Shown in pieces: positions 2,661 to 49,238 of a stretch of 64,000 nt of DNA (position 1 is the first letter of the stretch; each line of letters opens with the position of its first letter). Below the pieces are notes generated by a model that was not told the DNA's origin, did not search any database, and saw nothing but the letters and a program-made list of their open reading frames with translations. Position numbers and translations under genes: made by a program. Origin of the DNA: a virus; IMG/VR virus record IMGVR_UViG_3300043787_000193, positions 7,230 to 71,229 of that record. The stretch is one strand, 5' to 3'.

Positions 2661-3038
2661 ATGGCCCGTCCCCGACACCCGCAAGTCTGCTGTTCCTCAC
2701 TCTGCCGCCGCGAAATTCATCCCTACGAAAGCGCGGTCGCAATCTCGTGTTTCGCGCAGACGGTTGGGATGGGCAAACAGCGCACTTCAAAATCACAACG
2801 CTACTTCCTCTGCCCACAATGCGCCACTCGGATCGCCAGCGAAAAAGAGCCTTCCAAAAACGCTCCCTTCGATGTCGCCATCTTCCGCATCCTGCTTGAC
2901 CTGGTAGGCGCAATGCCGGATGTGACAGAAGCCACATTCCAGCAACTCCGGCAGCGCCGCGAGCAAATTCTTTACCCGCCAGCGCTACCGGAGCCGGAGA
3001 TTCTTCCGCCCATGAAGCGGCTCAAGGAAGCGAGTTAA
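2661..3038 (+). CDS. Cys-rich (Zn-binding) hypothetical protein
   Basis: AGGAGG RBS; CCSSLC...CPQC. Confidence 0.65.
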   Translation: MARPRHPQVCCSSLCRREIHPYESAVAISCFAQTVGMGKQRTSKSQRYFLCPQCATRIASEKEPSKNAPFDVAIFRILLDLVGAMPDVTEATFQQLRQRREQILYPPALPEPEILPPMKRLKEAS

Positions 3039-3409
3039 GCCGTAGGTGCAGCCGGTGCTGCCGGAGCCGGTGCCGCATTCAACACCGTCACCACGGAGTT
3101 GACGTAGTTCTGCACTGCGGCATCGTCGCTGGCTTTCCCTGCGTCCGCGAGTCCTTGCTTGATGAGTCCGCCCGCGATCCCGACTACAGCAGCGAGTTTC
3201 GATGCGCCGCTTCCAGTCTGTTTTCCGAGCGCCGTGAAGTTCTGTTCCGCCGTCGCCACTGCGGTCACTGTCGAATTGAATAGCGGGCCGAGCGATGGCG
3301 CGAAAGCCGCGACCGCCGCCTCGCCGAACGTTTCTGCTTTGGGAAGAATGAAGTCGAGGCCCTTCTTGAAGTCCTCGCCAACTTTTTGCAGCCAAGATTT
3401 GAAGCTCAT
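3035..3409 (-). CDS. Lysis-cassette protein (holin-like/membrane-associated)
   Basis: AGGAG RBS; amphipathic Ala-rich sequence with GSGASKLAAVV; downstream of the endolysin. Confidence 0.5.
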   Translation of the reverse strand: MSFKSWLQKVGEDFKKGLDFILPKAETFGEAAVAAFAPSLGPLFNSTVTAVATAEQNFTALGKQTGSGASKLAAVVGIAGGLIKQGLADAGKASDDAAVQNYVNSVVTVLNAAPAPAAPAAPTA

Positions 3410-3544
3410 AGTTATTCTCCTGTAGGTTGAGTTGCTGGATAGATCGGCGCGCGGAAAATACACGTCCACGCGGACCCGTTCTCAAGACAGACGATGAAAC
3501 GCCAGCCAGAAACCGGATCATAATAAAGGCGGATGGTCACGGAC

Positions 3545-3718
3545 TTACTGCTGATTCGGGGAAGGGGCGTGGTAGGCGGCGATTACCGCAGCCAGTAAAA
3601 CTCCGACCACGCTTTTCGGGTTAGCCGCCGCGAACGCCTGCAGCGACGGTAAAAGGAAATGCAGCGCCGCAAGCCCAGCTACGCCGAGCGACGGCAGATA
3701 TTTTGCGAATTGCTTCAT
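3545..3718 (-). CDS. Putative holin (2 TM segments)
   Basis: Two hydrophobic stretches, adjacent to the endolysin; AAGGAG RBS; alternative upstream GTG at 3769. Confidence 0.6.
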   Translation of the reverse strand: MKQFAKYLPSLGVAGLAALHFLLPSLQAFAAANPKSVVGVLLAAVIAAYHAPSPNQQ

Positions 3719-3778
3719 GGCTTCTCTCCTTAAAATGGTGCGTTCGATTGGATTCAGGTCTTCACTCACGACAGACTC

Positions 3779-4189
3779 CTAGACGGAAATTTCCGGGTCC
3801 ACCACCACAATTCCTGAGATCACTTGCAGCCGCGAATCTCCCGACTGCCAAACTCTTGAGCGCGTCGCTGGTCCCGCGCAGATGCAGCCTTTACTTCCCG
3901 ACCGAATATCCGCCGGCGGCTTCGGTTTGCCGTGCAGCAAAAAGCCCACTCTGCCAAACATCACGTTGTTTGCGTCCGGTTCCAGCCGCAGGATGTAAGG
4001 CCCGTGCTCGGTGTCTGAGTAGGGTGGACCTTCGATGGTGTAGAAGCCTTCCGGGATCGGCCCCACGTCGGGAACGTTTTGCTTCGTCGCATCGTTGAAA
4101 CCATCCGGGTATGCGCCGGAATAGCAATCGGTGTCAACTATGTTTCCGTTTTGGCCGAGTGTCCCGGTCGAGACGTTGTAGGTCCACAT
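3779..4189 (-). CDS. Tlde1/DUF2778 L,D-transpeptidase-fold protein, putative endolysin
   Basis: YSG...GPIPEGFY.I...RL.P...GRVGFLLHG...SKGCI motif. Confidence 0.8.
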   Translation of the reverse strand: MWTYNVSTGTLGQNGNIVDTDCYSGAYPDGFNDATKQNVPDVGPIPEGFYTIEGPPYSDTEHGPYILRLEPDANNVMFGRVGFLLHGKPKPPADIRSGSKGCICAGPATRSRVWQSGDSRLQVISGIVVVDPEISV

Positions 4190-4202
4190 ATATAGCTGTG
4201 TG

Positions 4203-7016
4203 TTATTGCAACCGCACGCAGAAGAAATCCGCGTGGTAGTTCCCGTTCGAATCAAGTCCCAACCCTTGCAGCATGGAGGATGCGAAGCAGTACCGCCCGC
4301 CCTTGGCGGTGGGGAGCCCAATCGAGTACTGCGATCCGAAGTAGCTGTCCGGCGCCCCACTCTTGCAACGCGCGTAGATGCTGCCCGGCGGCCCGCAACC
4401 GTAGGTGTGAGTGAACATCGTCGGCAACTGGTTCAGGGCGTTTGGAAACAGCGCCTGAATGACGTTGACCTGATTGAGGGGGCATTCTGGCGGATAGTGC
4501 GCCGGGGTCGAGCAGCCAGAAAATTGCGCCGCCAGCATCGAGTCCGTCGCTCCCACTGCGGGATAGCTGTCATCCCCGAGCGGGTGGGGTTGGCCGTAGT
4601 GCGCGTCTTGCACGATGCCGCCGGGGGCGAACAGGGTATAGCTCTGCGGGCTGGCGATTGGCCGGATATTCATGCCCGAGAACACATAGCTGATGGCATG
4701 GGTTACCCCAGTGCTGGGGTGATTGTTGAAGAACGGCCCCCCGCCGGCGTTTGAGCCGTTGTAGAACCACGAATCTCCGATAGTTCCGTTATGCCAGACG
4801 GTTAACTGGTTGCTGATTGTGCTGCCCGCGCACTGGCCCTGCGACCAAGGAGGGCCGTTGATGGACCAGAGCGTGTAGTTTCCATCGAGTGACATCTGGC
4901 CGTCGTGGATGCCGTGTCCTCCCGCGCCATTTGATCCCCAGCAGGAGGTGCCGGTGACGACTGCGCCGGAGGAGTGAAGCTGGGTGAAGTTGGCCGTGAG
5001 CCGCCATCCACCGAACCCGCATGGACCGCCAGTGGGAACTGCCGCTTGAACCTGCTCTTGCGTCGCCAGTCCGGGATCAATAATGAAACTGTCTCCAACT
5101 CGGAGATTCGTGCTCGCCAAGACGCAAGTCGTTTGACTCCCCGTAGAAGTCACCGCCTGTGTGAGCGTCGTGTTCACCGTCCCCTGCAACGTCCCAATCG
5201 GCGGAATTGCTTCCGAACACGCCGAAGTCGAGCACGTTCCCGGCGCGAGGAATCCCCAGATCTGCCCGGTATTGAAATTCGCAGTGGAGCACCCGAGCGT
5301 CTTGTCCCACACGAATGCCCAGTCCGCCGTGCCCTGTCCTCCGGGAGCGATGGTGATGGCGAATCTTTGATCGGTTTGCGAAACCGTCATAATGCTGTTC
5401 GAGGCCGGAGTGAAAGGCACCACTCCGGGACAGACTCCAGCGCCGAGCAGATCCACCAACTCTGTCTCTATAGCGATGTCGGTTTTCGCGTAAGGCTTGT
5501 TGGTGAGCGTTCCCGTGTTGCCCACGATGGTGCATGTGGACGAAGTGCAGCTCGAGATCGGGTAGTTCACGTAATTGACTGCCAGCGTTCCGGTCCAACT
5601 CGAGAGCGGCGGTGCGGCGGAATTATTCGTGACGAAGGTGACGATGGAGTTTCCGCCCGAGTTCACGCTGTTTGCCGTGCCTGCCGGGATGTCCGCTTGC
5701 CAGATTTGCGACCGGCTTTGGGTGTAATAGAAGCGCGTGTCCAGGGTGCGGCTGAAGCTGAATTCTCCCGTGACTCCGATACCTTTTGATCCGCTGATGT
5801 CGCCCGTGTTGACCACTGCATCGCAATTCCCGGTGGTGTTCACGTAGAGAATGCGCGTGCCGCCGCCGTTTCCATAAAAGGCCAGGAAGTCCTCGTTGAT
5901 AGAACCCGAAAAATCGTTGGCGCTGCCATCGACGGTTCCATTGCTCGATTGCCCGACATTGGTAGCCTGGTCCGTCATCTGCGTGATGCAATCCGTTCCT
6001 GAAGGATTAAGCGTCGTGTCGTAGCCGGTCGAGTTCTGGCCGCCGGTCAGGGGCGCTCCATAGAAGGTGTAAGAAACCCCGGTCAGTCCAGCAGCGAGTG
6101 CAGGCGTAGCCGCAACCGTCGCTACCGTGGTAGAGTTCCACGCCACCACGGTGTACGGCCCCCCACCATTGACCACCAGCGCTTTCGTGAGCGGCCAGCT
6201 TGTGTTGAAGTTCGTTCCTCCAGTGAGCTGAACGCAGGTTTGACCACCGACTGGGGTGCATCCCCCGGTGGTAGTGCTGTAAGTCGAAACTGTTCCCGAG
6301 GCAAGGGTTGTGGCAAAGGGCGCGGTGATCAGGCCGGGATTCGTGGTGGGAGCCTGGGAGCAGTAATAGTTTGGCGGACCCGGCGTGCAGGCCGAGCCGC
6401 TGATGGTGATGGAGACTTGCACCGCCGCGCTCACGTTCGAGTTGCTGTCTGTCGCCTGCACGCTCCAGGTCGTCGTGCCTGAGCCCGTCGGCGTCCCCGT
6501 CAGGGCTCCGGTCGAGGTATTCAGCGAGATCCCCGTCGGCGGCGAGCCCGAGGAATTGGCCCAGGTGCAGCAGGTGATTCCCGGATCAGACGCGGTAAAG
6601 GTGAAGCCCACATACGCGACGCTCGTTGTACCAGCCGGGAGAACACAGGGCTGCGTACATCCAGCCGGCGGATTGTTGATTACGGGAACGGCGCTCACCG
6701 TGATGCTGACAGAACCCGTGACGCCGCCGATGGTGCAACTCGCCATCGCCGTGCCAGCCGCCACACCAGTGACCACGCTTCCCGAGATGGTGAAGATGGC
6801 AGTGTTGGAAGACTGGAATGGGCAGTCATTGCGGAAGATGTTCGGCGCGGGATTATTCAACTGCGCGGTCAGCACAGAAGTTCCCCCGACTGCGATCGTC
6901 GAGGGCGTGGCAACCACGGTGATGCTGGTAGCTGGGGTGATCACCGGGGTGACGACGATCTGCTGGGCCGAAAGCGGCGCACACAAGAGCGCGAGAGCGA
7001 GAAGAATGCGTTTCAT
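4203..7016 (-). CDS. Signal-peptide protein with Ig-like (Big_2/He_PIG-type) domains
   Basis: MKRILLALALLCAPLSA-QQ; SSNTAIFTISGSVVTGVAAGTA; PPTGISLNTSTGALTGTPT. Confidence 0.8.
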   Translation of the reverse strand: MKRILLALALLCAPLSAQQIVVTPVITPATSITVVATPSTIAVGGTSVLTAQLNNPAPNIFRNDCPFQSSNTAIFTISGSVVTGVAAGTAMASCTIGGVTGSVSITVSAVPVINNPPAGCTQPCVLPAGTTSVAYVGFTFTASDPGITCCTWANSSGSPPTGISLNTSTGALTGTPTGSGTTTWSVQATDSNSNVSAAVQVSITISGSACTPGPPNYYCSQAPTTNPGLITAPFATTLASGTVSTYSTTTGGCTPVGGQTCVQLTGGTNFNTSWPLTKALVVNGGGPYTVVAWNSTTVATVAATPALAAGLTGVSYTFYGAPLTGGQNSTGYDTTLNPSGTDCITQMTDQATNVGQSSNGTVDGSANDFSGSINEDFLAFYGNGGGTRILYVNTTGNCDAVVNTGDISGSKGIGVTGEFSFSRTLDTRFYYTQSRSQIWQADIPAGTANSVNSGGNSIVTFVTNNSAAPPLSSWTGTLAVNYVNYPISSCTSSTCTIVGNTGTLTNKPYAKTDIAIETELVDLLGAGVCPGVVPFTPASNSIMTVSQTDQRFAITIAPGGQGTADWAFVWDKTLGCSTANFNTGQIWGFLAPGTCSTSACSEAIPPIGTLQGTVNTTLTQAVTSTGSQTTCVLASTNLRVGDSFIIDPGLATQEQVQAAVPTGGPCGFGGWRLTANFTQLHSSGAVVTGTSCWGSNGAGGHGIHDGQMSLDGNYTLWSINGPPWSQGQCAGSTISNQLTVWHNGTIGDSWFYNGSNAGGGPFFNNHPSTGVTHAISYVFSGMNIRPIASPQSYTLFAPGGIVQDAHYGQPHPLGDDSYPAVGATDSMLAAQFSGCSTPAHYPPECPLNQVNVIQALFPNALNQLPTMFTHTYGCGPPGSIYARCKSGAPDSYFGSQYSIGLPTAKGGRYCFASSMLQGLGLDSNGNYHADFFCVRLQ

Positions 7017-7049
7017 GGGAGTGTGGGTAAAAAGGGAAGAGGTTGTTTT

Positions 7050-9998
7050 CTAGAACTGATTCAGTGGCAAAGTCGCTATCGGGTATGTATCGGTCACCGG
7101 CGGAATCGTGATCCGCACCGTGGGGCCGAAGGTGTAAGTCATGCCTGTGCCGCCGACGACGAAGCCGAAGCCGGGCCCGGTTCCGTTGGTAAATGTGAAG
7201 TCATCGCAGGTTCCCGGTACCGGAATAGTTGAATTGTTCGCGCAGTTGCTCGGAGCGGTGAAGCCTGGATTCGTAGAGATCGTTCCCGCCGTGTCCTCAC
7301 TGTTGCTTTGCCAGGTCGCAAAGTTTTGGTTCGCTGAGTTCGAGAAGTTGAACTTCCACACTCCGCTGGCGCTTTGGTAGTAGAGGTTCTTCACGAATTG
7401 CTGAATGCTCGGAGATGTCCCGGTAGGCGGCCCGGTCTGCCCGTTGGCCGTGACGTTGGCGAGCACATCCATGCCAAAGATGTTGGACTGGGCAGTGAAT
7501 TCCAGGATCGTATTGAGCGGACTTTGTACACGAATCCCCCCGCCGAGGTTGCTGAAAATCGCCGAGTTGAGCAGGATGTTGTTCTGAAAAAGATTATTCT
7601 GGCTCGCCAGTTGCGGGCCGAAGTTTTGGTTGATCAGATACCCGGTGGTCCGGTAGCAGAGGTTATATTCCACCGTCCACAGTCCGGTGTTGCCGTCGAA
7701 GTACAGGCAATGCACGCCGATGTCGGCGGTGTCGCCATTCACGGCGGCGGAGTTCAAATCGTGAACCCGGTTATGGGAAAACACATTCCCGGTCGCGTTG
7801 GTGATCTGGTTCGTGCTCTGACAGGTGGAGACGGAACTGTTCGGGCAGTACGAGGTCATGAAGTAAACCCCCGTATCCACCGTGATGCCCTGAACGAGAT
7901 CGTGAAAATCGTTGTACTTGAAAACGATGTTGAAGTCGCCGTGATTCGTCGATACCCACGGACTTGCGGAGCACTGGTTCGGCCCCGGCTGGCCCGGCTC
8001 GCAGACTTCCGATGCACCGTGATAGGTGTGGCCGACGTCGTTGTTCGTCACAGTGACGTTGTTCGCCAAGCCCACCATGAAACCATCGGCAGAGGAGAAC
8101 CATCGGCCTGTCTCCTCAAACCAGTTCTGACTGACGGTGACGTTGTTGGGCACTTGCGTGTCGCTCGGGGAAGTGCCGCTCTGGTTCGGCGCTACGCCGA
8201 TGCGCGCGCCATAGGCTCCAATGTCGTTGAAGATGTTTCCCGTGATCGTCGGGCTGCTGGCTCCGGTCACCGCAAGGCCGACAGTAACCGTGTCCTGAAA
8301 CGTATCCCCAGAAAAAGTGACGTGCGATCCGCAGGCCGCGCACTGCACCATCGAAGCTGTGATCGGCAGGTTGTAGTCAAGCTGCGTGGAGAGATAGCCG
8401 GTCGAAGGAACGGTCCAGTTGTCGTGCTCAAAAGTCAGCCCTTGGAAAGTGGTGTAGTCAATGCTCGTGGCGGTCAGGACTTGCGCGTTGTTGGGGATGA
8501 CGACTGCATCGGTATTCGGATTCTCCCCGCCCAGCTCGATGTAATTCAGGGTCCAGTTGGGATAGTTCGGATTGGTGCTCGAACGGTCGAGATACCACTG
8601 CCCCGGCTGGTAGAAGCACTCCAGACAGTTCTCCACCATGTAGCGGTAGCCGCCCTGGTAGGGCACCCCGGCGCCGCCCGAGCCGCGGCAGTTCGATGGT
8701 CCGCAGGTCGTCGTGATGGTGTGGTGGGTGTCATCCGTCGAAGAAATTCTCTGAAAATCCTCGGTCCACTTGTCCCATGCAAACACTTCGCAGTCGAACG
8801 GTCCTCCGAGGTTGCAACTGGTCAGGCCGGTGGGCAGGTTATTGTCTGCGGTGCTGTAGACGAAACTCGCATTGATGGCGTTCGGCCCTTGCGTCGCGAT
8901 GCCAACAGAGATCATGGTTGAAGTGATGTCGGCATGGGTGTACGGGCATTGGAAAGAACTGGACGAAAGGCCGGTCGCTGAAACGGTGCAGGTCGTCGTA
9001 CCGTCTAGAAACTTCCAAGTCGTATTCGTGATTCCGGTGAAGGTGACGTTGTAGCTGGAAAGAAAAGTGTTGCTCACCGTGACCGTGAGCACGTTGCTGG
9101 TGAGTGCTAAATTGCTGATCGTGCCGCTCGGGTTTCCCGCATGCTCGAAGGTTCCGATGTCGTTGACGACGGTCGCCGCGCTGCCTGGAGTCTCCGCTAC
9201 GCCTGTCGCGCCATTCACAATCAAAGTGGACGAGGTGCAGGAGTTGACCTGAAACAGCCCGTTGTTCGCGGCGTTCGAGAAGCCCATGATAAACACGGAG
9301 CTGGTCGAACTGACTCCCGCAGGACCGCCAGAGACTTGCGTCGGGCTGTAGCATCCCGTGAATGTGCCGTTGTACTGCGTCAAGCCGCCGCTCGCGCCAT
9401 TGTTGACGCTCGTCGCTGAATAGGTGTTCGCTCCCAGCCTTGGCCGGAATCGTCGCGCCCCGTAATTCACGGACCCAGCGTTGTAGTAGAACAGCGCCTC
9501 GAAAAATGGCGTGGTGTTTGCGATCGCCACTTGATCGCAGGTAAAACCAGCCGTATGCGCCGCCGCGCAGGTTCCGGTTGTGACGTTGCGAGTCCATCCC
9601 GTGATTTGCGTGCCGCCGCTGAAGACGGGAGACTGGCCGGGAAGCGCAAGATAGGTCACGGGACAGAGCGATGTTCCAGTGTCGGAAGCAATGAAGGCCG
9701 ACGTCGTGTTGTAGTACGGATTGGATGCGAGGCCGGAGACAGCAATTGTGATCGGCCCAGCACAAGTCGATAGCGCCGTCCTGACTAAAGACCGCGTGTG
9801 ATCGAGCGTCAGGCAGGGTGTCCCCAGAGCCGTGCAATTGTTGCTGTCGCTTCCCGCCGGGGAAAGATAGAAGCTGTAGCCCGTCGTCACGGGCGAGACC
9901 GTCATCCCCGTCGTGGTGAAGCCCGTGGACGTAACCTGCGCCCACGCGAAAGCCGCGAGCAGCGGGACCAACCACGTAATTGTCGCGAGTCTCTTCAA
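7050..9998 (-). CDS. Signal-peptide right-handed beta-helix protein (GH141-like putative depolymerase)
   Basis: FYLSPAGSDSN; PGQSPVFSGGTQITGW; QPGQWYLD; LYFDGNTGLWTVEYNLCY; Asn ladders. Confidence 0.75.
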   Translation of the reverse strand: MKRLATITWLVPLLAAFAWAQVTSTGFTTTGMTVSPVTTGYSFYLSPAGSDSNNCTALGTPCLTLDHTRSLVRTALSTCAGPITIAVSGLASNPYYNTTSAFIASDTGTSLCPVTYLALPGQSPVFSGGTQITGWTRNVTTGTCAAAHTAGFTCDQVAIANTTPFFEALFYYNAGSVNYGARRFRPRLGANTYSATSVNNGASGGLTQYNGTFTGCYSPTQVSGGPAGVSSTSSVFIMGFSNAANNGLFQVNSCTSSTLIVNGATGVAETPGSAATVVNDIGTFEHAGNPSGTISNLALTSNVLTVTVSNTFLSSYNVTFTGITNTTWKFLDGTTTCTVSATGLSSSSFQCPYTHADITSTMISVGIATQGPNAINASFVYSTADNNLPTGLTSCNLGGPFDCEVFAWDKWTEDFQRISSTDDTHHTITTTCGPSNCRGSGGAGVPYQGGYRYMVENCLECFYQPGQWYLDRSSTNPNYPNWTLNYIELGGENPNTDAVVIPNNAQVLTATSIDYTTFQGLTFEHDNWTVPSTGYLSTQLDYNLPITASMVQCAACGSHVTFSGDTFQDTVTVGLAVTGASSPTITGNIFNDIGAYGARIGVAPNQSGTSPSDTQVPNNVTVSQNWFEETGRWFSSADGFMVGLANNVTVTNNDVGHTYHGASEVCEPGQPGPNQCSASPWVSTNHGDFNIVFKYNDFHDLVQGITVDTGVYFMTSYCPNSSVSTCQSTNQITNATGNVFSHNRVHDLNSAAVNGDTADIGVHCLYFDGNTGLWTVEYNLCYRTTGYLINQNFGPQLASQNNLFQNNILLNSAIFSNLGGGIRVQSPLNTILEFTAQSNIFGMDVLANVTANGQTGPPTGTSPSIQQFVKNLYYQSASGVWKFNFSNSANQNFATWQSNSEDTAGTISTNPGFTAPSNCANNSTIPVPGTCDDFTFTNGTGPGFGFVVGGTGMTYTFGPTVRITIPPVTDTYPIATLPLNQF

Positions 9999-9999
9999 C

Positions 10000-12411
10000 T
10001 CAGTACATCCTCACGGCGTAGGCGTGAACGTCATAGGTCCAGGTTCCCGTGGTGCAAGCGGTGTAGGTCGCGGTCAAGGTAAGGTTGGAGCTGCTGCCCA
10101 CATAAACATCGTTCACCTGGTTCACGTATGAACCCGTGCCGGTTGCCGCTGTGCCCGGAGTCAGCGTGAGCGTTGCTCCGACGCGCGCGTGTGTGCCGTC
10201 AGTCCAGCCGACCGAGATCGTCAGGACGCCGGAGCCCACGGTCGTACAGCCAGCGCTTTGATCGGCGTACACGTTGAACTGGTAGTGCCCAGCAGAAACC
10301 GACGAAGCCACAGTTTGCGGACTCCCGGAATTCGCGGTGGAGACGCCGGTTTGATCCAGCCGGTAGGAACTTGGGACGCAACCCTGAAGTTGATTTGTGC
10401 TGTTGCCCAAAGCCAGACAATCGGTGGGCAGGGAACCGGTTACATAGGCCGTACTAGATGGAGTGTTTAACACCCATTCTGTCCCGTCATAGCAGGCCTC
10501 AAAAACGCCCCCGCTCGTCATATCAACGCCGGTGGCTGCGAGAGCCGCGACTCCCGCCTCCGTGCGCTTGTAAAGATTGATCGCGCCGTAGGCCGTCGCT
10601 CCGGTGTAGGGTGTGACGTTGAGGGTGCTGGTCGCATTTCCTGCGCTGGCAGTCTTGAAATTCACGCACAGCCCAGTCGCGATGCTGGCCGGAAGTCCCT
10701 GGACGGTGATGACAACATTTCCTCCGGAGCCACTGTCGAGTGCGTAGGGGATGGGCGGCGGACAATTTGTGGTGGAGAGTCCCCCGTTGGCCGTGGAACA
10801 TGCGGGATTCAAAGCAGTCGTGCTGATCGTGGCCGCAGTCGCAATCCCGGCATCCGTTCCGACCATCGCTTTATGGTTGAACGTTGCCGCACTCACATCC
10901 CCCGAACCGCTGCCATAAGTGAGAGTCGTGCCGTTGTCGGTCAGGTTGGCATCGCCTGAGATCGTGTTGCCGGAGGCGTTGTAAATTCCAAGCTGGTGAA
11001 TCGTCGCCGAGTTGACTGTTCCTCCCCCTGATGCGGAGACTGTGCCCGGTTCGATATCGTCCCACTCGGTTCCGTCCCACACTGCTTTTACGATGAAGGG
11101 CGCAACGTTGATGTCATTTGCCAGCAGCGCGGCCAAGCCCGAGGAACTGATTTTCTTGATAGGCTGAATGCCCGTCGTGCACCAGTTCAACGTGGAGGCT
11201 CCTGTGTTCGCGTGGAGCGCCACGAAGTAAGCCATGAGTCCGACGCTGAGAGAAACAGTCGGCGCGCTCACCCCCACGGGGCAGGCCACATAAGCGTTTG
11301 CTGTGCCGGTGTCAGTGGGGACGGAAATTCCCACCGCAGGCGCCGTCTCAATTCCGTTCTGCGAGTTGACCGTGAAATTCGGGCAGGTGATCGGCATCCC
11401 CGTCGCGGCGCTGTAGCACATGATGTTGCCGTCTACATAGGGAACCGACTGAAAGGCGGTGGTATAGACTCTCTGATTCGCCAGACCGTTTGGGTCCCAC
11501 GACAGCGCGCTTGATCCCGTTGCTAAATCGACCTGATCGCACAGTTGGTCGTAGCCGAGAGGATTCAGCAGGCAAAACGGGTCTTCCTGATTGAAGAGAA
11601 CGGCAGAGACGCCCGGAGGGGTGGAGGGGCCGATGGTCAGGGGGCCGTTCACCGGGGGCAGGGTGATGGGGCTTGGCAAGGACACCGTGGCCGTGCTCCC
11701 GACTGTTGTAACGTTGACTTGGTTGGGCGTGCCGACGACGGTGGTGGGCGTGGCTCCGGGCAATCCGATGATGGTGGCGCCGGTGAAATCAAATGTGCAG
11801 GGGCCAAGGCCGTCCGTGGGGCTGCACAGAAACGAGCCGATAAAATTACCCGTTGTGCCCGCTGGCTGGTTCCACGTTTGGGTGTTGGTCGGATTCTCGT
11901 AAAGCTGCGAGAATCCCGGCGTCGGTGGCGGCTGCGTCATCGGGTCGGCAGTGACCAGGTTGAAAGTTCCGAGGCTCGCCTGGTTGCCGCAGGTGGTGAT
12001 GGTCGCCGAGGCCGAGCAGATGACGTAAGGGATGCCGCCGCGCAAGGGATGCGAGGCGTCCTTCATGGGCGTGACCACGTAGTAGGTCGAGATCACGTTG
12101 CCGCAGGTCATCTGGTCGTTGCCGAGAATCGAGCCCACGATGGCGGAGCCGGGGGTGACCGGATAGAGATCGAAAGCGTCTTGCGCGACTACGGAGGGCT
12201 GGCCAGGGATGACCGGGATGTTGTCGCCGCAGTTCACCAACTGGAAGTGCAGATAAGCGGTGCGGTAGGCGTTGGCGATGCCGCCGGTCATGGTGCCTGT
12301 GGTCAGGGTGGTGTTGATCGAGACCTGGGCCGCGAGCGGAATCGTCGAGACCAGGACGGTCGAGAAAAAGACCGCCGCGAGCAGGGAAGCGAAAACGATG
12401 GCTTTACGCAT
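10000..12411 (-). CDS. Tail-fibre-like protein with N-terminal signal peptide
   Basis: Two DTGTANAY...F.A..ANTGASTLN...YDGTEW modules typical of phage fibres; N-terminus MRKAIVFASLLAAVFF...LAA-Q. Confidence 0.7.
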   Translation of the reverse strand: MRKAIVFASLLAAVFFSTVLVSTIPLAAQVSINTTLTTGTMTGGIANAYRTAYLHFQLVNCGDNIPVIPGQPSVVAQDAFDLYPVTPGSAIVGSILGNDQMTCGNVISTYYVVTPMKDASHPLRGGIPYVICSASATITTCGNQASLGTFNLVTADPMTQPPPTPGFSQLYENPTNTQTWNQPAGTTGNFIGSFLCSPTDGLGPCTFDFTGATIIGLPGATPTTVVGTPNQVNVTTVGSTATVSLPSPITLPPVNGPLTIGPSTPPGVSAVLFNQEDPFCLLNPLGYDQLCDQVDLATGSSALSWDPNGLANQRVYTTAFQSVPYVDGNIMCYSAATGMPITCPNFTVNSQNGIETAPAVGISVPTDTGTANAYVACPVGVSAPTVSLSVGLMAYFVALHANTGASTLNWCTTGIQPIKKISSSGLAALLANDINVAPFIVKAVWDGTEWDDIEPGTVSASGGGTVNSATIHQLGIYNASGNTISGDANLTDNGTTLTYGSGSGDVSAATFNHKAMVGTDAGIATAATISTTALNPACSTANGGLSTTNCPPPIPYALDSGSGGNVVITVQGLPASIATGLCVNFKTASAGNATSTLNVTPYTGATAYGAINLYKRTEAGVAALAATGVDMTSGGVFEACYDGTEWVLNTPSSTAYVTGSLPTDCLALGNSTNQLQGCVPSSYRLDQTGVSTANSGSPQTVASSVSAGHYQFNVYADQSAGCTTVGSGVLTISVGWTDGTHARVGATLTLTPGTAATGTGSYVNQVNDVYVGSSSNLTLTATYTACTTGTWTYDVHAYAVRMY

Positions 12412-12443
12412 GGGAATCTATCGGCTGGTTTTATTGACGGAGG

Positions 12444-13565
12444 CTATCGGCGTTGCTTGCGGGCTTCCTCGGCTAGGGCGTGGCGGATGTTGCCGCCGTA
12501 ATAGCTCATGGCGGGGCCTTCCGCTTCCCGTTCTTCTTGCTGGATCTTCGAGAGTTCGAGCATGGCTTCGGTGGGGGATTTCTTTTTCCAGAGTTCGCCC
12601 ACGCGCTCGCTCACGCGCTGATCGTAAGTTTTCTTGGTAGGCTCAGGGTGCGACATGACGACGTATTTCGAGGCGTCCGCCGCGTGGTTGTCTTTATCGA
12701 CGATGGCCTCACTCAAGTTGCGGCTCATCAACTGCTGCGCCGTAAGCTTCACTCGGCGGGTGCGCATCAGCTCCCACAGCAGGTTTGGACAGTCCCACTG
12801 GTGAAGTCCCGGCTGCGGACGTTCGCTCGAATTGCGGCAGACGATGCGGATCGTAGGTTCGCGTTCGTCGAGATTCGACCAGTGCAGCAACATGCGCTCC
12901 GCGAAACTCACGTCGGAGCGGTCGCCGTGAAACTTCGAGAAGATTCCCAGGCCTTCCTCGTCGTAGAGTTCCGCGATCGACTTGGCGCGCGCCTGCGCTT
13001 CTCCTGGCCGGGCCTGCCCCTGCTCCATGTTGGCGGGGAAGATGCTCGGGTCGGCGTGACACACGTCCATGCGAAACACGTCCTGCATTTCTTTCAACCG
13101 AGGCGCGTGCTGCGCCACTTCCATGCCCGGCACGTAGTACTCGCCGCAGAAATAACCCACTCCGTCGTGATCGAAGTAGCAGCGCTCCAAAACGGTGGGA
13201 TTGGTTTTGCCGTAATCGAAACCGCCTTCGAGACGCCACTCCGGATGCGGCCGCCAGCGCGGATCGGTGATAACGATCTTCGACCAATAAGTGGTGAGCG
13301 TGGATGCAAACACTAATTCTCCGCCGCCGGCTTCATCGCGGATGTCCTGCTCGCGGTCCCAATCGGCCTGCGAAGTGTATTTCTTGCGTTCCGTCTTTTT
13401 CCAGTCGGGATTGGTGTCAGGGTTGCGCTCAGGATGGACCGAGTAGTGCAGGCGAACCACAGGAATGCCGCCCGAGGTGCGACGGATGCGCTCGCCGGGG
13501 CGCACTTCCACGTCGCTCTGGGCGGGCAGTTTTCTTGTCTTCACTAACGCTTCGAGCGCTTTCAT
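12444..13565 (-). CDS. Terminase large subunit, nuclease (RNase H-like) half
   Basis: GGFDYGKTNPT, GEYY, HADPSIF, DKDNHAADASKY. Confidence 0.8.
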   Translation of the reverse strand: MKALEALVKTRKLPAQSDVEVRPGERIRRTSGGIPVVRLHYSVHPERNPDTNPDWKKTERKKYTSQADWDREQDIRDEAGGGELVFASTLTTYWSKIVITDPRWRPHPEWRLEGGFDYGKTNPTVLERCYFDHDGVGYFCGEYYVPGMEVAQHAPRLKEMQDVFRMDVCHADPSIFPANMEQGQARPGEAQARAKSIAELYDEEGLGIFSKFHGDRSDVSFAERMLLHWSNLDEREPTIRIVCRNSSERPQPGLHQWDCPNLLWELMRTRRVKLTAQQLMSRNLSEAIVDKDNHAADASKYVVMSHPEPTKKTYDQRVSERVGELWKKKSPTEAMLELSKIQQEEREAEGPAMSYYGGNIRHALAEEARKQRR

Positions 13566-13571
13566 GCAGGA

Positions 13572-14348
13572 TCAATCTTCGCTGGTGCGGATGATGTCGT
13601 GGCGTGCGTCGGCGTACCAGCCGGGTCCAGCAGAGGAGTTGAAAATAATCTTGCCCTTCACCGCGGAAATCGCTTCGTTGTAGCATTCGCCGGCGTCCGC
13701 CTGAAACGAGCTTTCATCGTTCAAGTAGCCCCAAGGGTGATAGCTGCGCACCTGGTCGGCCCCTCCGGGGATGCCCACGATGTATCCGCCGGCCGCAAAA
13801 CTCAGCGAATGCTCCGGCTGCAGGTCCACGGGCTTCGTGAGTGGGTAGGCATCCTTCAACCACTGAGGTTGTCTTCGATAGAGACACTTCGCGTATTCAA
13901 CGAGCTGGATTACCTTGTCGTCCTTCTGGGTCTGGAAGAGAACGCCGCGGTGCGGGACGCGCATCGCATTCAAGGTGAGATAGGCGACACAAGCCCAGGA
14001 GACCATCAGGTCGCGCGATTTCTCAATCCATGTGATCTGTTCCGCTTCGAAAATCTGGAACAGATCCTGAAAATAATCGAAGCGGGGAAACTTCTCGTAA
14101 GGCGACGGCCGCTTTTCCTCCACCCAGTGTTCGTTGTAGGTTTCAGTGTGCTCCGTAGCCCAGATATAGGCGTCGCGCGTGGCTTCTTCGGCCTTGCCAT
14201 CGCGCTCGGCCACTTGCACGCTGAGATCCTCGGGCGGTTTGTAGCGCGCGCGCTGGGTCAATTCGAAACGGGCATTGGCCAAGCCCCAGCGCGGATCGGT
14301 GCGCAAGCGGTAGTTTGAGAGCTGCGGCAGTGTCGCGTTACGTTTCAT
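13572..14348 (-). CDS. Terminase large subunit, ATPase half
   Basis: EKSRDLMVSW (deviant Walker A), VRSYHPWGYLNDE (Walker B), NSSA motif III; ATG 14348 overlaps the terS end. Confidence 0.8.
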   Translation of the reverse strand: MKRNATLPQLSNYRLRTDPRWGLANARFELTQRARYKPPEDLSVQVAERDGKAEEATRDAYIWATEHTETYNEHWVEEKRPSPYEKFPRFDYFQDLFQIFEAEQITWIEKSRDLMVSWACVAYLTLNAMRVPHRGVLFQTQKDDKVIQLVEYAKCLYRRQPQWLKDAYPLTKPVDLQPEHSLSFAAGGYIVGIPGGADQVRSYHPWGYLNDESSFQADAGECYNEAISAVKGKIIFNSSAGPGWYADARHDIIRTSED

Positions 14349-14850
14349 CGTCAGGAGCGGCAAAGCGAGCAGGCAGAGCGCCAGTGCGGTGATAGGTTTC
14401 CAGTTCCTCATCGGTCCAGCCGGCGAAGAGATCATGTGAAGAATTCCGGCTCGACATGCCGAAGATGTCTTTGAGTTCGCGCAGGGCGGCGACCTTGGCG
14501 GAATCGGTTTCGGCGCTGGTCGAAAGTGCGTCCAATCGGTTGATGATGTCGTTGCGCGTGATGGTGACGCCTTCGGCTTCGCGTTCTCCGAGGTTGGCGA
14601 CGAACGCATCTTCCTTTTTCTTCAGCGCAGCCTGTACGTTGGGCAGGCTGAATAGCTTCGACGCTACCCGGTCGGGAGTCTTTGACTTCGAGCCGGCGTC
14701 GATGACCGCCTGAGTTTTGTTGCCCTTGAATTTCTCTACGCATTTGCGTTGAAAGGCGGTGAGGGGCTTGTCTTCCGGAGCTACCTGTTTACGCTTCTGG
14801 TTCTTCGTTTTCGAGTGCTTGGGTGCTGGTTTTGCCGGGTGCTTGGGCAT
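14338..14850 (-). CDS. terS: Terminase small subunit
   Basis: LTAFQRKCVEK..GNKTQAVIDAG......VASKLFSLPNVQAAL HTH; AKVAALREL. Confidence 0.85.
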   Translation of the reverse strand: MPKHPAKPAPKHSKTKNQKRKQVAPEDKPLTAFQRKCVEKFKGNKTQAVIDAGSKSKTPDRVASKLFSLPNVQAALKKKEDAFVANLGEREAEGVTITRNDIINRLDALSTSAETDSAKVAALRELKDIFGMSSRNSSHDLFAGWTDEELETYHRTGALPARFAAPDDET

Positions 14851-14913
14851 ACGAGTTGCTCCGTTCTTCGTAACTCGTTTGAGTTGGGGCGGTGCATGAG
14901 TAGGGCAGTGCGG

Positions 14914-17900
14914 TTATTGCGCGACCAGTTCGGATTGCGCCGGCGCTGGGCTCTGCCAGCTATAGCGGGCGCGGGCCTTCTTCTGGGACAAAATCTTTTC
15001 GAGCATCTTGATCTCGTGCTCGTCTTTGTCTTTGCGCGCGGCTTCCAGAACTTTTTCGGTCTCGGCGATCGTGAAGTTGTGCACCATGTCTTCGAGGGGG
15101 TCTAACTTGGCGCGATGTTCGAGGCTCAAAATCTGGCGGTGTGTCAGTTCGCGCTTGGCTTCGGCGTCTTTCAAGGGCTGGCGGTTGCCCTGGCGCAACT
15201 GGTCGAGGATCTCGCGGCGCTCCACGCGACTCTTGTGATCTTCCGGATACTCGGCTTCAGTGCCTACTTTCGCGGCGGCGATGTCTCCCGCAACTTTCTC
15301 GGCGCGGGTTTTCCCGAACTGCACCCCCGCCTGCTGCCAGAAGAATTTCTTTTTCTGTGCAGTGGTCTCGGCGCGTTCGTATTGCCCGACCTGTCCGAAG
15401 TCTCCGAGCAGGTAGTGCGCGAGTTGCTGATACTGGATGTCCCAAGGGGCGTGCGGGTCGTAAATTTGGTGCCCGGAAAAGAATTCCCGGTTGAGCGCCA
15501 ACTCTGCCGCGCCTTTGGAGAACGGGGAAGGGGTCACCACTTTCTGCAACGCGCTCAATACATCCTGTTTGTGCTCGGCAACTTGCGTGGCGGCATCGAC
15601 ATAGCCGGCGGGTCCGGGACGACGCCATCGCGCATGCTTGTCGCCGGTCAACTTCTGCGCGGCTTTGTCGAAGACGTAGGGGAAGAGAACCATAGTGATC
15701 AACCCCAGCATGGCAAGGCGGTCCCAGCCTTTGCCGACTTCTTCCGCCTTGGTACGCCCAGCAGAAGGGGTCTGCGCGCCCAAGGCGGATTTCGCGCTTT
15801 CCGCGAAACTCTTCAGCAGGCCGTAGTGATACGCTCCGAACCAACTGATGAGCGGATTGCCCATGATCTTCGAAGCGGCGCGGCTGTCGGCGATGCGCGA
15901 GGGCAGGCGATATTCGGGGATGATCTTGCCCACTTCCTTGAAAGCGTCCGAGAGGGAAGTTCCGGGGTGTTCCGACTGGTACTGGTAGGCCGCCTGCAGA
16001 TACATCACGTCGGAAGAGAACCAGGCCGCGATCGAGGAAGGCTTGTGCAGCAAGTTCAGCAGGTTCCCATGCTCGATGCCGAGCGCTTCCGCGATCTTCA
16101 TGGCCCAGTGTTCTTTTTTGTCGAGGCCTTCGGCAAGCCGGTCGAAGAATAGTTTGTGGATGTCCTTCAGGTCTTCGCGGTGGGATTGCAGGGCGGCGCC
16201 GGCGTCGAGCGCGTCGAGGAAGTCCTGATTCTTTTCGAGCACGGCTTTCACTGCTTTGCCGCCCGTCTTGTAGATTGATTTCCACTTCCACGGGGCAAAA
16301 CCGCTCAATCCCTTTTCGAAGCCCCAGCTTGCCGCGACGTTCAGCGGGTGGACGATGGGGTTGATCAGGTAGGCCGCGCGCAGGAACTTTTGTACGGTTT
16401 CCAGAACGCCAAATTGTCCCTTGTCTAATCTCTCGGCGTAGTCATTCAGCACTTCGGCGGTGCGGGGCTCGAAGTAGTAGCCGCGGAACTGGGGTAGAGT
16501 GGTGGTCTTCCAGCCTTTGGGCGGATTGCCGGTTCCGTTCCACGCTACTTCTTTGAATTCCGGGGAGGCTTTGTAGGCGTTGAGGAAGCGCAGGGCATCG
16601 ACAGCCGAGCCAAGTTGTACGTTGGACGCAAAGAGAGAGGCGAACAGCGAGTGATAGTACTCCAGTTCGGTGTTGGCTTCGATCTCCTTAGTGGTAGCCT
16701 GCGTCACTTTCCAGTCGTAGCCGTCCGGCCCTTCCACGATCTTTCCTTTTTCGTAGAAGACAGAATTCGGCTCGCCCTCGGGGAAGGTTTCATTCTCGAC
16801 CGGCGAGCGGCCTTTGGCGTTTTTCACAGCGCCTAGCTCCGTGGGTTCGCCGTTCACCCACATGGTTGCTTTACCGTCTTTGATCGAGATCACGCGCCGT
16901 TCGTCACCGTCCGGGGATTCAATCGCCATCATGGTGCGGGTTTTGGTCTGGGGGGCGGATTTCGAGAGAGTCCCTCTGGTCCCGACAGCTTTCACGCCGC
17001 GGGCGATGCGGTCCAGCATGCCGCCTTTGCCTTTCACTGATCGCGAGACGTAGTTCTCGATGGGGATGCCGCCGTCGGTTAACTCTTCGAAATACTCCGT
17101 GTTCTGCTCATCGAGCGGCAGGGCCACGTCGTCGAACCAATCATCCTGGCGCGCGTCGAGTTGCACGTTCTCGGGGTCTTCCTTGTGATCGTAGAGAACG
17201 GCATCGGAAGCGTGAGTCAGTCCTTGCTTCTTGAGTTTCTCGAAGGCGTCTTTCGCCCGGAGAATGCGCGCCTGTTTTCGAGTGTCAAGGGTTTCGAGGC
17301 CGCGTTGTAAGTTGCGCGCGAGTTCGGTCGCGCGATTGACTTCCCGCACGTAGTTACCGATCGTGCCGGCGGCCTCGGCCACGGCTTTTGCGAGTTCACC
17401 GGGGCGGGCTTCGCCGGATTCATCCTTGATCAGCCGGCCCAGCACGGAATCGCCGCTCTCTGGTTCGTCTTCTCCCTGATCGGCGCTGGCGTCGATGTCG
17501 GAAGCGATTTCCTGTTCGTGCGCCGCCTGAAATTCGTCGTTGCCAAGACGCTGGTTGACTTCGCGCAATTCGCGGCGGCCTTCAGTCAGTTCCTTGGTGT
17601 CGAAGGCTTTCTCTTCTTTCGCGAGTTCTTCAAGGCGGGCGACGCGATCGCGGCGGAACTTGATTGCCCCTTCCATCTCTTCAATGGTGTGCGGCAGGTT
17701 GCGCAGAACGTGTTCTGCTGATCGAACCACAGAGGAGAGGGTTGTTTCGGGGGCGGTATATGTCCCGTTCGAGAGTCCGTCGATGCCTTCTGGCCCCCTG
17801 TGTTCTCCGACTCCCGCGCCGCCCCATGAGCGGTAGATGGTGGGGTAGGGAAGCCGGTATTCGAGGTATTCAACCTGCCCCTCGCTCAATTTTCCGCTTT

Positions 17901-20900
17901 CTTTGCGGTCTCTTAGATAGTCGTTGATGCCCTTTGTCGGGTTCTTCTTCAGGAATTCGGCGAGGTGGTCGCTACTGTCGCCCTGCTTGAGTTTGGGCTC
18001 AACGATGATTGGTAGCCCGTTCAGCTTGAGGTGTAGATTGGAAAGAGGGGTTTCCTGCTTTTCCAGCCACTCGTTTGCTTTGGTCCGGTCATCAAACTTC
18101 TGCCCGAGAATGTCGAGGCTGAAGGTTTTTCCGTCCGCGCCTGTGGCTTCGCGGTAGTTGGCCGCCGCCTGCTCCATCGAGGCTTTGCCCGCCTTGAAGC
18201 GTGCGATGCGGTTCTCTTCGCTTTCGATCAGCCCTTGCCGTTGCCGCGCCTGGGCATCGTGCTGCTCGGATAGAATCTCCTGTTTGCGAATCTTTGCTTC
18301 CAGTTCCATCTTCCGCTTTACGTCGGGGTTGCCGGAGGCGATGGCCTTCATTTCTTCGTAGGAGAGAACGGCGTCCGAGGCGGCGTCGGTGATGGTGTCG
18401 CCCACGTCCTTGCCGGCGAGCGCCTGCCAGATGAATTTCGCTTTCCCCTCGAGCGTCTGCCCCATGTAGGCATCGAAGGAGTGCTCGGTTGCGTACCAGT
18501 AGAGCCGGACAACGGGGTTAGTGTTGCCCTGGCGCTCGATGCGACCGGTGCGCTGCTCCAGTTCGCCCGGCTTCCACGGGAAATCTACGTGATGCTCGGC
18601 GATGAGCCGCCGCTGTGCGTTGGTCCCCGCGCCCATCTTCTGCGTCGAACCCAGCAGGACGCGGACCTTGCCCTCGTTGACTTCATCGAACAGGGCGAGT
18701 TTCTTTTCCGGGTTGTCGTAATCGTGGATGATGGCGATTTCGTTTTTCGGAATCCCTTGCTTCACCAGCAGATCGCGGATCTCGTGGTAGAGATTGAATT
18801 CTTCTTTCTTGGTCGCGGGGTTGGTGTAGCGGAAGCGATCGGCGAAGATCATTTGCGTGACCTTGTTGGCTTCGCCGTCTTTATATTCCCGAACTACGTT
18901 CTTGACCACATCGTGAATCTTTGAGTACTGCCCGGAGGCCTTCGGATCGAGCAGGCGCGGATCGGTCGCCGCCAGCCGCCCCTCGGTGACCACCGAGAGC
19001 ATGTTGTCTTCCTCCGGCTTCGGCTTCGGGAAGTACTCCATCTTCACGCGCTTGCCCACCTTGCCGGTCTTCGGGTCGGTGTATTCCTCCATCACGGGCT
19101 TCCCGGCGTCGTCGAGCACGGGAACGCCTTCTCCGCGGATCGCCGCGGCGCGCCGGACCAGGTTGCGCACAATCGGTTCGATGTCGGGGTTCTTGACGCT
19201 CACCATCTTCGGCCCGCCGCCTTCGATCTTCGGCAGCAGGGCTTTTAATTCCGGCAAGTCCTCATTGGTCTTCACGTCGGCGAAGGAGTTGAACATCCGT
19301 TGCAACTCTTGCACGTTGGTGAATTCGGCGAACTTGGAGCGGGGTTTGTAGCTCTCGGCGTCGGGCGAGAGTTCCATGGCGGTGATGATCTTGCCGAAGT
19401 TGGCGGCCCAGTCGTCGAAGTATTTGATCCCGGCCTTTTCGAGCACGTCCGGGGCGACGTAGCGAATCATGTTGTACATCTCCGCCATGGTGTTCTGCAC
19501 CGGGGTGCCGGTCGCGAAGTACACGCCGCGGTTGTTGTTGCGGTCGAGAAGGTAGTCCGTCTTCATCTTCAGCCGCGTGGCGCGTTTTGCGTTGCCCTGG
19601 GCGAGGCCGGCCACGCGCTGCATCTTGGTGTAGAACAGCAGATTCTTGTATTCGTGGGCTTCGTCCACGAACAGAGTGTCGATGCCGGTATCGTCGAAGT
19701 TGATGGCCTTGTCTGATTTCAGGTTGGCGAGCGAGGCGATCTTCGCCTCCAGATTGGCCTTTGCCTTCTCCATCTGTTTCACTGAACGCTTGTGCGCGCG
19801 ACTGGAGGCCTTGTCCCGGTTGCCGCGGCCCTGCGCTTCCATGCCTCGAATCGTTTCTTCCAGTTCGTCGAGGTCCTTTTCGAGCGTCTTGCGCTGGCGC
19901 TCGGCGGAAATATCCATCAGGTTGAAATGGGAGTGGGGCATGATGATGGCGTCCCAATCGTTGTTCGCCATCTTTGCCATCGCGATCTGCCGGTTCTTCG
20001 CGCTGAAATCGTCTTTTCCTACCACCATGACGTTCGCGCCGGGGTAGAGCTTCGACCAGTCCCGCGCCCACTGCTCGACCAGGTGATTCGGGACGGCGTA
20101 AAGAATCTTCTTGGCAAGCCCCAACCGCCGCAACTCGGCTCCGCTCGCGATCATGTTGTAGGTCTTGCCCGCGCCGACGACTTGCGCGATCAGGCCACGG
20201 CCCTGCTGCACGTTGCGCCAGATTCCATCTCGCTGGTGGGGCATGAACTGACTATTGCGCAGCACTGCCAGATTCGCGCCGGGGAAGGTCAGGTGTGCGC
20301 CGTCCGCCTTCGGTGCGACCAGATTGTTGTATTTGTCGTTGAACAGGCGCGCCAGTTGCGGAGACCACTCGCGGTGATCCTTCATCCACTTCGAGAAGTT
20401 GTCGCTGAGTTTCTCTTGCAGTTCGCGGGCGGCGACGGTGCGCTTCTGATTCACCACGCGCCGCTCTGCGGTTTTCCCCTCGTCGTTGATGTAGGTTTGC
20501 AGATCGTAGGAAGTCGGCTGTTTCAGGTTCAGCGCCAGCTCCATCAGATCGGTCGCGGAGAATTCGGCGTTCCCGTATTGGCTGATGTTCTCCGCCGACT
20601 CGCGCGTGTTGTCGATCTTCCAGGTGCCGCCGACGCTTGAAACCTTCACGTCATAGGGTTGCTTCAGGAAGTCGTTCAGGAATTGCTGGGTGGCTTCGGT
20701 GGGAATCCACGTCGCTCCCGGCCGCACGGCGATGCGCTCGATAGGCTTGTCGGGAGGGATGACCTTTTCGAGGGCCTCCACATTGGCCTGATATTCTTTG
20801 GCTCCTTGCGCGACGGCCGCTTTCGCGTCGGCGAGTTTGTCGCGCACGTAGCCCGAGAGATAGTCGTCGGCCATCTTGTAATCGCCGCCGACTGGATCGC

Positions 20901-27987: not shown

Positions 27988-27990
27988 AAA

Positions 27991-29391: not shown

Positions 29392-29400
29392 GAGAGAGAG

Positions 29401-30006: not shown

Positions 30007-30008
30007 AG

Positions 30009-49221: not shown

Positions 49222-49238
49222 GATTCCAGAGTTCATGG

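Follow-up and report, generated by a model that had tools for sequence, protein, structure and literature searches.

Predicted export leaders on a tail-fibre relative and two secreted-type proteins in the late operon of an uncultured Acidobacteriota phage

In the textbook scheme, the assembly of tailed phages is wholly cytoplasmic. Here we describe three consecutive genes with predicted export leaders, encoding the proteins P0003, P0002 and P0001, in the late operon of a 71-kb tailed phage of Acidobacteriota (Terriglobia), an uncultured soil phage with late genes in T7-like order. The stretch of DNA analysed, hereafter the window, comprises bases 7230–71229 (64,000 nucleotides) of the single 71,229-bp virus record IMGVR_UViG_3300043787_000193 (IMG/VR); coordinates are those of the window unless a locus is named. 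Described counterparts of P0003 are the side fibre Stf of phage lambda and the fibre gp17 of phage T7, which, as predicted for P0003, combine a small β-sandwich first domain with a trimeric shaft and an exchangeable tip, and whose genes occupy a comparable slot; in the T7 order the fibre gene comes after the internal-protein genes and before lysis. Stf and gp17 are leaderless, whereas P0003 has a cleavable-type leader before the anchor-like domain, which contains four conserved cysteines. The proteins pIII and pVIII of filamentous phages are virion proteins with Sec leaders that are assembled outside the cytoplasm, which is a further likeness; filamentous phages are extruded at the membrane, whereas the window phage has a terminase and packages its DNA into heads in the cytoplasm.

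The layout of a leader followed by a conserved first domain, as in P0003, is also found in the mosaic adhesive trimer (MAT) fibres of Bdellovibrio bacteriovorus (Caulton et al. 2024, PMC10769870). As described in the part of that report considered here, MAT fibres derive from chromosomal genes of the predator and are located on its own surface or on a vesicle, whereas P0003 is encoded in a phage late operon beside terminase and lysis genes. The S74 chaperone domain was not found by Pfam in the three proteins, and the likeness to MAT fibres noted here is one of layout. Late phage proteins that use the host Sec system are represented by the Sec-exported and signal-arrest-release (SAR) endolysins of the fOg44 Lys44 and P1 Lyz type, which are extracytoplasmic until the holin fires (PMC6116005). 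Those proteins are lysis enzymes, whereas here fibre-type proteins have leaders and the Tlde1-domain lysis candidate is leaderless. Phages of Porphyromonas gingivalis carry five Q-rule genes of unknown function, the products of which have signal peptidase I leaders that expose Gln, as do host proteins (Matrishin et al. 2023, PMC10367356); the portion of that paper considered is silent on tail parts, and the host there belongs to the Bacteroidota, here to the Acidobacteriota. Signal-bearing endolysins and Q-rule phage proteins are already known; the export-signal route appears not to have been described for tailed-phage fibres, and literature searches returned no paper describing tailed-phage fibres with export signals (the supplementary gene lists of PMC10367356 and PMC11924767 lay outside the search).

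The initial annotation of this DNA had claimed that three consecutive genes between terminase and lysis genes begin with n/h/c-type signal peptides and a predicted mature Gln, and the three minus-strand genes are so arranged. P0003 (803 aa, ATG start, 10000–12411) consists of a leader, an anchor-like first domain, a fibre body and a C-terminal tip; it is followed on the same strand by P0002 (982 aa, TTG start, 7050–9998) and P0001 (937 aa, ATG start, 4203–7016). The leaders comprise residues 1–28 of P0003 (12328–12411, Ala-Ala followed by Gln29, with a modelled helix at residues 4–19), residues 1–20 of P0002 (9939–9998) and residues 1–17 of P0001 (6966–7016). In all three, Lys or Arg at residues 2–3 is followed by an uncharged hydrophobic run (best 10-residue Kyte–Doolittle means of 1.8–3.1) and an A-x-A or S-x-A junction, with Gln at position +1. 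Inspection of the three leaders revealed no lipobox (L-x-[GAS]-C), and a lipoprotein signal was rejected for this reason.

In the relatives, the leader is conserved as a feature, not as a sequence. Leader counts were scored by our own strict rule or by eye, not by a trained signal-peptide predictor. By eye, 25/25 first-round relatives of P0003 have a leader. An HMMER pass over 1.84 billion representatives gave 431 matches at E ≤ 0.001, the best 150 of which were used; 162 proteins were examined, of which 110 have the first domain, and in 90 of these the predicted mature end is preceded by 12 or more residues. The strict rule was passed by 68 of these 90. Among the 22 that failed, seven have an over-long start followed by an obvious hydrophobic leader, and most of the other 15 are fragments of at most 250 aa. 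Gln occupies position +1 at 59 of the 91 aligned junctions, position −1 is A, S, G or C in 70/90 and position −3 is A, S, L or V in 76/90 relatives; the leader sequences themselves drift freely, with no shared sequence in the 91-row junction alignment. Conserved anatomy on a drifting sequence is typical of cleaved signals, which follow a −3/−1 rule; the n/h/c anatomy and −3/−1 junction kept here therefore point to a cleaved signal, not to a structural contact. Leader-like starts were also present in 20/24 relatives of P0002, some with lipoprotein-type boxes by eye, and the relatives P0056 and P0057 begin with leaders.

Database gene calls begin later than the starts given above, by 9 codons in P0002 (973 instead of 982 aa) and by 194 codons in P0001 (743 instead of 937 aa), and the stretches lost are 9971–9998 and 6434–7016, respectively. 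As these public starts lie inside or after the leader, automatic annotation would hide the signal peptides. The upstream starts are favoured by a GAGGA motif 9 nt before TTG 9998 (P0002), by Pfam Ig-type matches at residues 74–205 of P0001, ahead of the alternative start, and by the leaders of P0056 and P0057. An internal start at Met41 of P0003 was rejected because this Met is absent in distant relatives. The real starts do not lie downstream of the hydrophobic leaders, which the initial annotation had named as a finding that would speak against export; the leaders are real, conserved and host-typical. Judged from these features of the sequence, Sec export of the three proteins with cleavage before Gln is very likely.

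The three proteins had further been described as rich in Cys and proposed to fold oxidatively. Their Cys content is 2.5–3.1%, compared with 1.8% in other open reading frames (ORFs) of at least 190 aa. The predicted mature proteins contain 20 (P0003), 26 (P0002) and 28 (P0001) Cys, all even numbers and mostly arranged in close pairs. Among P0003 relatives of at least 400 aa, even Cys counts were found in 70/79 leader-bearing versus 7/14 leaderless proteins (binomial p = 3.9e-13, Fisher p = 0.002), the rows being mostly 50%-identity cluster representatives and not fully independent. The prevalence of even counts in the leader-bearing relatives suggests folding in an oxidising compartment. The tip domain of P0003 is also present in the leaderless relative P0143 (E = 1e-38), which has no Cys at the positions of C61 and C103, the alignment of its first domain being weak (152 columns, E = 0.0067, probability 5.7%); the sole locus found for its context, L110, matches residues 155–1043 of P0143 and not the first domain. 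The Cys parity lends oxidative folding statistical support, the lack of these first-domain cysteines in P0143 also speaks for it, and disulfide formation in the periplasm is predicted with good confidence.

P0003 appears to be a genuine tail-fibre relative, and its first domain is predicted to fold like fibre-to-tail anchors. This domain (residues 29–225, 11737–12327) is a predicted β-sandwich with conserved Cys 61, 103, 132 and 141, followed by a putative trimer-forming stretch at residues 166–214. Its model, computed from a 51-row alignment, had a mean predicted local distance difference test (pLDDT) value of 74, with approximately 90 over residues 50–160. The four best matches of a VIA fold search against 48,161 solved chains were all phage fibre or neck attachment pieces, namely the cyanophage A-1(L) neck fibre (Z = 7.7), a 94-residue chain of the Ur-lambda tail tip (Z = 7.3), the Bxb1 tail tip (Z = 7.0) and the XM1 neck (Z = 6.4); Z values below 8 are common for models without true relatives and do not prove kinship. 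The Ur-lambda chain was superimposed over 93 residues with a root-mean-square deviation of 3.1 Å. According to the Ur-lambda paper (PMC12617516), the side fibres are held on the tail by a collar made up of Stf residues 1–94, and since the matched chain has 94 residues, it probably represents this collar piece. Foldseek gave nothing at E ≤ 0.001 for the first-domain model in PDB or BFVD (best PDB E = 0.036), and a PDB sequence search with the fibre profile gave no match. The alignment of the first-domain profile with gp15 of phage Tunturi_3 by hhalign (20 columns, probability 0.9%) was rejected as evidence.

For residues 29–225, a homotrimer was predicted with a score of 0.54 versus 0.00 for the best of three controls, with the interface at residues 166–214. 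The trimer runs had at least 87% of contacts in common and partner pLDDT values of at least 71. In the calibration, the mark was reached by 20/30 solved pairs and 1/23 single chains, which fits the present case (three copies, own alignment) roughly. The modules of P0003 are each common to a different set of proteins of 450–1840 aa, and its relatives have hypervariable C-termini on a conserved N-terminus. P0003 itself matched none of the PHROG families at E ≤ 0.01. The claim that it contains phage fibre modules finds support in relatives: its repeat module (residues 366–485, 10957–11316), which is repeated three to four times in phrog_4900-matching relatives, matches repeats in P0169, P0185 and P0268 (E = 1e-28 to 5e-13 versus residues 326–650), and these three proteins match phrog_4900, annotated as tail protein. 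The C-terminal end of P0185 also matches long-tail-fibre distal subunit families. The tip domain of P0003 (residues 684–801, 10009–10362) contains two conserved Cys and is common to many fibres of other lengths.

The location of P0003 next to the terminase is conserved in most of the related loci. Its start codon lies 32 nt past the stop of the large terminase (TerL), which is encoded by two ORFs (13572–14609 and 12444–13565, together 12444–14609, minus strand) upstream of P0003. A scan of viral contigs with P0003 alone found no relative, and a scan with the alignment did find relatives. In 6/9 related IMG/VR loci a homologue of the C-terminal TerL ORF is located directly upstream of the leader-bearing fibre gene, which in three of these six overlaps the TerL stop by 4 nt; in the other three of the nine, the crude ORF picker chose an opposite-strand ORF across the TerL stretch. 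The leader-bearing genes after the fibre gene vary: locus L008 has none before the Tlde1 gene, and the close relative G002, with a portal-like protein 84% identical to that of the window, has a different one. Of 77 metagenome loci, the 21 larger ones were examined; at least seven have a phage context, and in these the fibre gene is followed by another one to three large ORFs that are rich in Cys and begin with a leader. The remaining examined loci have short ORFs with the first domain in bacterial contexts, in two cases next to serine recombinases.

The same gene slot is used in an otherwise unrelated phage. G001, a complete 57-kb phage, resembles the window in the first domain, at 46% identity, and otherwise only through a weak TerL match. 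Its genes are arranged as in T7, where the fibre comes after the internal proteins, in the succession portal (phrog_1216, 7e-8), tail protein (phrog_10775), a nozzle-like tail protein of 1126 aa, three Cys-free ORFs, a leader-bearing protein of 1458 aa with the P0003-type first domain, a leader-bearing protein of 863 aa and a small membrane ORF. Other fibre candidates were recognised neither in the window phage nor in G001, and no leaderless paralogue of P0003 was found in the window. The initial label of virion-type proteins is supported for P0003, with its anchor-like first domain, predicted trimer, tail-protein repeats and T7 fibre slot in two otherwise unrelated phages; P0002 and P0001 look devoid of a particle-binding domain. 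The tail genes of the window phage and G001 are otherwise dissimilar. The window ORF of 1538 aa (31355–35971) and the 1126-aa tail protein of G001 (L018, 1699–5079) share a short domain, present in approximately five repeats in the window protein (best pair E = 0.002), and BLASTP of a candidate adaptor (252 aa) against the G001 tail protein gave nothing.

P0002 and P0001 look like bacterial-type secreted proteins. P0002 is predicted from its sequence to consist of a leader, a short linker and a right-handed β-helix of the bacterial secreted type. The β-helix assigned to it initially is supported by the match of residues 34–148 to PDB entry 9rx2 (Parallel beta-helix repeat protein, 1.3e-5) and by precomputed PF13229 assignments on many P0002 relatives, and not by a Pfam match of its own (none at E ≤ 0.01). 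Since the helix begins approximately 20 residues after the leader, there is no N-terminal particle-binding domain in P0002. P0001 contains Ig-like domains at residues 74–205 (6402–6797; He_PIG, 1.7e-6), followed by a Cys-rich C-terminal part. A PDB sequence search with P0001 gave no match, an AlphaFold model of residues 206–937 obtained with a five-row alignment yielded no fold (mean pLDDT 30.1), and the best scores for residues 205–937 in an ESM Atlas search (0.75–0.76; WD40-like, oligogalacturonide lyase) provide a lead at most. P0002 and P0001 are more likely to act as free glycan-directed proteins. The secreted matrix-degrading factors that the initial annotation had offered as an alternative fit these two proteins at least as well, given their bacterial-type secreted architecture.

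The explanation that accounts best for the locus as a whole, and that we put forward tentatively, is export, disulfide folding and fibre attachment after the holin has opened the inner membrane. P0001, P0002 and P0003 would be expressed late, probably together with the terminase from a single transcript. After their export by Sec, signal peptidase I would cleave them before Gln, and the exposed Gln may cyclise to pyroglutamate. Folding would then take place in the periplasm, an oxidising compartment, with 10 disulfides in P0003, 13 in P0002 and 14 in P0001. P0003 would form a trimeric fibre with the anchor domain right after the leader and would meet the fibreless particle, built in the cytoplasm, only once the holin opens the inner membrane; attachment would follow while the cell is lysing, or in the lysate. 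Since exported proteins have no way back into the cytoplasm, P0003, if it is a virion fibre, would have to be added after holin opening. Such a step is physically plausible, as the lesions made by holins are large and the tailspikes and fibres of P22, T4 and lambda can be joined to particles in vitro. Attachment to the particle after holin opening is possible and could readily prove wrong. P0002 and P0001 would be host-derived secreted proteins that bind or cut glycans, either free on the matrix or riding on the fibre. The fullest version, in which the last assembly step is extracytoplasmic, with a Sec-exported, trimmed and disulfide-bonded fibre plugged onto the particles after holin opening, with host-derived glycanases co-opted and with Cys-free internal proteins as its mirror image, is rather unlikely to hold in all its parts.

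Several observations weigh against fibre attachment after export. To our knowledge, no tailed phage adds exported parts to its particle. In P0004 and P0005, the first domain is swapped for a different β-sandwich on the same fibre body; together with the occurrence of the first domain in the otherwise unrelated G001, this argues against one fixed docking partner. The fold matches of the first domain stay within the Z range reached without kinship. Cys parity gave no signal in the P0002 family (11 even, 9 odd), and L110 encodes a fibre of 1163 aa that contains 28 Cys and lacks a clear leader. Many relatives of P0002 are found on 297–947 kb bacterial contigs named Acidobacteriia or Acidobacteriales, and the start motif of the β-helix that P0002 has in common with bacterial relatives lies approximately 20 residues past the leader. 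Finally, the fibres of Tunturi_3, a cultured podovirus of Acidobacteriota, are leaderless and Cys-poor, and the leader trait is therefore a property of certain phage lineages and not imposed by the host.

One alternative is nearly as likely as fibre attachment: the three proteins would be exported and never enter the particle, acting either unbound or at the envelope of the dying cell. They might cut or bind exopolysaccharide and thereby let progeny escape, destroy or mask receptors and thereby spare progeny from being lost on debris, or exclude other phages. Receptor binding would then be the task of another structural protein, e.g. the nozzle-like protein of 1538 aa. The bacterial-type secreted architecture of P0002 and P0001, devoid of an anchor domain, fits this alternative, as does the absence of both from the close relatives L008, with the fibre only before the Tlde1 gene, and G002, with its different leader-bearing gene. 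The movement of the first domain among unrelated phages, its replacement in P0004 and P0005, and the short leader-bearing ORFs with the first domain in bacterial contexts point the same way, and the MAT fibres of Bdellovibrio, which are leader-bearing, phage-like and built on a conserved first domain, serve the cell and not a virion, according to the part of the report considered (PMC10769870). Against this alternative stand the features of P0003: a fold like that of fibre anchors, a stalk predicted to trimerise, repeats found in tail proteins, and a place in the fibre slot of two phage lineages, neither of which has another recognised fibre candidate; the genome contains no leaderless paralogue with the same tip, and hypervariable C-termini on a conserved N-terminus are a hallmark of particle-bound receptor-binding proteins.

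Two further explanations concern the leaders and the time of expression. If the leaders were not export signals but remained uncleaved in the cytoplasm or served as membrane tethers, fibre assembly would be cytoplasmic as usual, in line with the default for every tailed phage studied. This is improbable in view of the n/h/c anatomy and −3/−1 junction kept over the 91 aligned relatives despite the drift of the leader, and of the excess of even Cys counts in leader-bearing over leaderless relatives, which indicates an oxidising compartment. Still less probable is that the genes are moron-like lysogenic-conversion cargo expressed from the prophage for surface display, adhesion or exclusion, as might be suggested by the serine recombinase of the phage (54614–55249) and by first-domain fragments beside recombinases in the bacterial contigs L059 and L063. 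The genes form part of the late operon, the start of the fibre gene overlaps the terminase stop in 3/9 related loci, and at 800–1650 aa with a fibre architecture the proteins are unlike known morons. Nor was there a sign of a separate transcription unit: over 2800–15200, no promoter-like site was found versus 3.0 expected, and 12 terminator-like sites versus 12.4 expected, i.e. no excess. For the same reason, the three genes appear to be co-transcribed with the terminase.

If the proposed export and attachment are true, phage assembly would extend to a further compartment and depend on several more host factors, namely Sec, signal peptidase and the disulfide machinery of the periplasm. This would also account for the borrowing of robust, disulfide-rich secreted glycanases from the host by soil phages. 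The prediction of receptor-binding proteins would change as well, as the gene callers trimmed or skipped leaders here, and such fibres would probably misfold when expressed in the cytoplasm. On the tamer reading, too, approximately 12.7 kb of 71 kb are devoted to exported late proteins, genes that soil viromics would otherwise label as carbon-cycling auxiliary genes.

Gln after the predicted cleavage site is also common in bacterial relatives of P0002 and recalls the Q-rule of Bacteroidetes. The relatives of the first domain at four loci belong to metagenome-assembled genomes (MAGs) of Acidobacteriota/Terriglobia, not of Bacteroidota. A Glu_cyclase_2 gene was present in one of three Acidobacteriota MAGs. 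Among 27 host leaders collected with a crude cleavage rule from approximately 270 kb of Acidobacteriota MAG DNA, +1 was Gln in 5/27 by rule and in approximately 9/27 by eye; a phylum-wide Q-rule in Acidobacteriota is not claimed, as this sample of 27 leaders is too weak. The portion of the main text of the Q-rule paper considered does not mention Acidobacteria.

The minus-strand late operon comprises, in this order, a portal-like ORF of 833 aa, head genes, the ORF of 1538 aa that encodes a very large nozzle-like protein, small ORFs and a polyvalent ORF of 4155 aa, followed by the small terminase subunit (14338–14850, minus strand; Pfam Terminase_2 2.5e-6, phrog_51 6.7e-9), the two TerL ORFs, P0003, P0002, P0001 and lysis-like genes. 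With terminase, lysis genes and a virus record at hand, a plasmid or other non-phage element was ruled out. Pfam and PHROG searches with 28 window ORFs left nearly all structural genes without a name, and tblastn of P0001, P0002, P0003, the portal-like ORF and the C-terminal TerL ORF against 50,697 cultured phage records gave zero matches. The split of TerL into two ORFs was also observed in the relatives L001–L005, L008 and L027, the halves being out of frame with short overlaps (e.g. 576–1394 and 1360–2562 in L001, 8047–8892 and 8892–9941 in L008); as relatives carry the same split, it is not a sequencing error of one record. Downstream of P0001, a leaderless Tlde1-domain protein with an L,D-transpeptidase fold (3779–4189, minus strand, probable ATG at 4189; phrog_24118, 8.7e-22) is a likely endolysin, the homologue of which comes after the fibre gene in L008. 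It is followed by an ORF of 74 aa with two hydrophobic stretches on inspection (3545–3769, minus strand), holin-like by position, and the two genes look like a lysis cassette.

Three further minus-strand ORFs of the window encode leader-bearing proteins, of 546 aa (47608–49248), 568 aa (52256–53962; 77% conserved in G002) and 413 aa (57689–58930; weak β-propeller repeat matches). They contain 10, 8 (after the likely start) and 2 Cys, respectively.

The polyvalent ORF of 4155 aa (14914–27381, minus strand), which marks an internal or ejected-protein block before the terminase and the exported cassette, contains no Cys (chance approximately 4e-33 at the Cys frequency of the other ORFs). Nearby ORFs of 200, 466, 269 and 513 aa (within 27385–30210 and 42530–44071) are also Cys-free, and the same was observed for presumed internal or ejected proteins of G001 (152, 524 and 617 aa), L058 (1866 aa, partial), L110 (246, 246, 437 and 791 aa) and Tunturi_3 (gp24 and gp25, 797 and 1070 aa; L022). 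Proteins that cross the periplasm unfolded may avoid cysteine.

In a number of loci (L030, L034, L040, L051, L066, L069, L070, L074–L076 and L086), ORFs of approximately 100–320 aa contain only the leader and the first domain; a similar in-frame stretch is located upstream of the leader, and the surroundings look bacterial. These short ORFs could be left over from integrated phages or form a small family of secreted proteins in their own right. The serine recombinase of the window phage (minus strand) is 79% identical to that of G002 and suggests a temperate lifestyle; homologues are located beside first-domain fragments in L059 and L063. Within the head-gene block, a plus-strand ORF of 132 aa (38950–39348) has a twin-arginine-like start (Arg-Arg-Asn-Phe-Leu, followed by an Ala-rich stretch).

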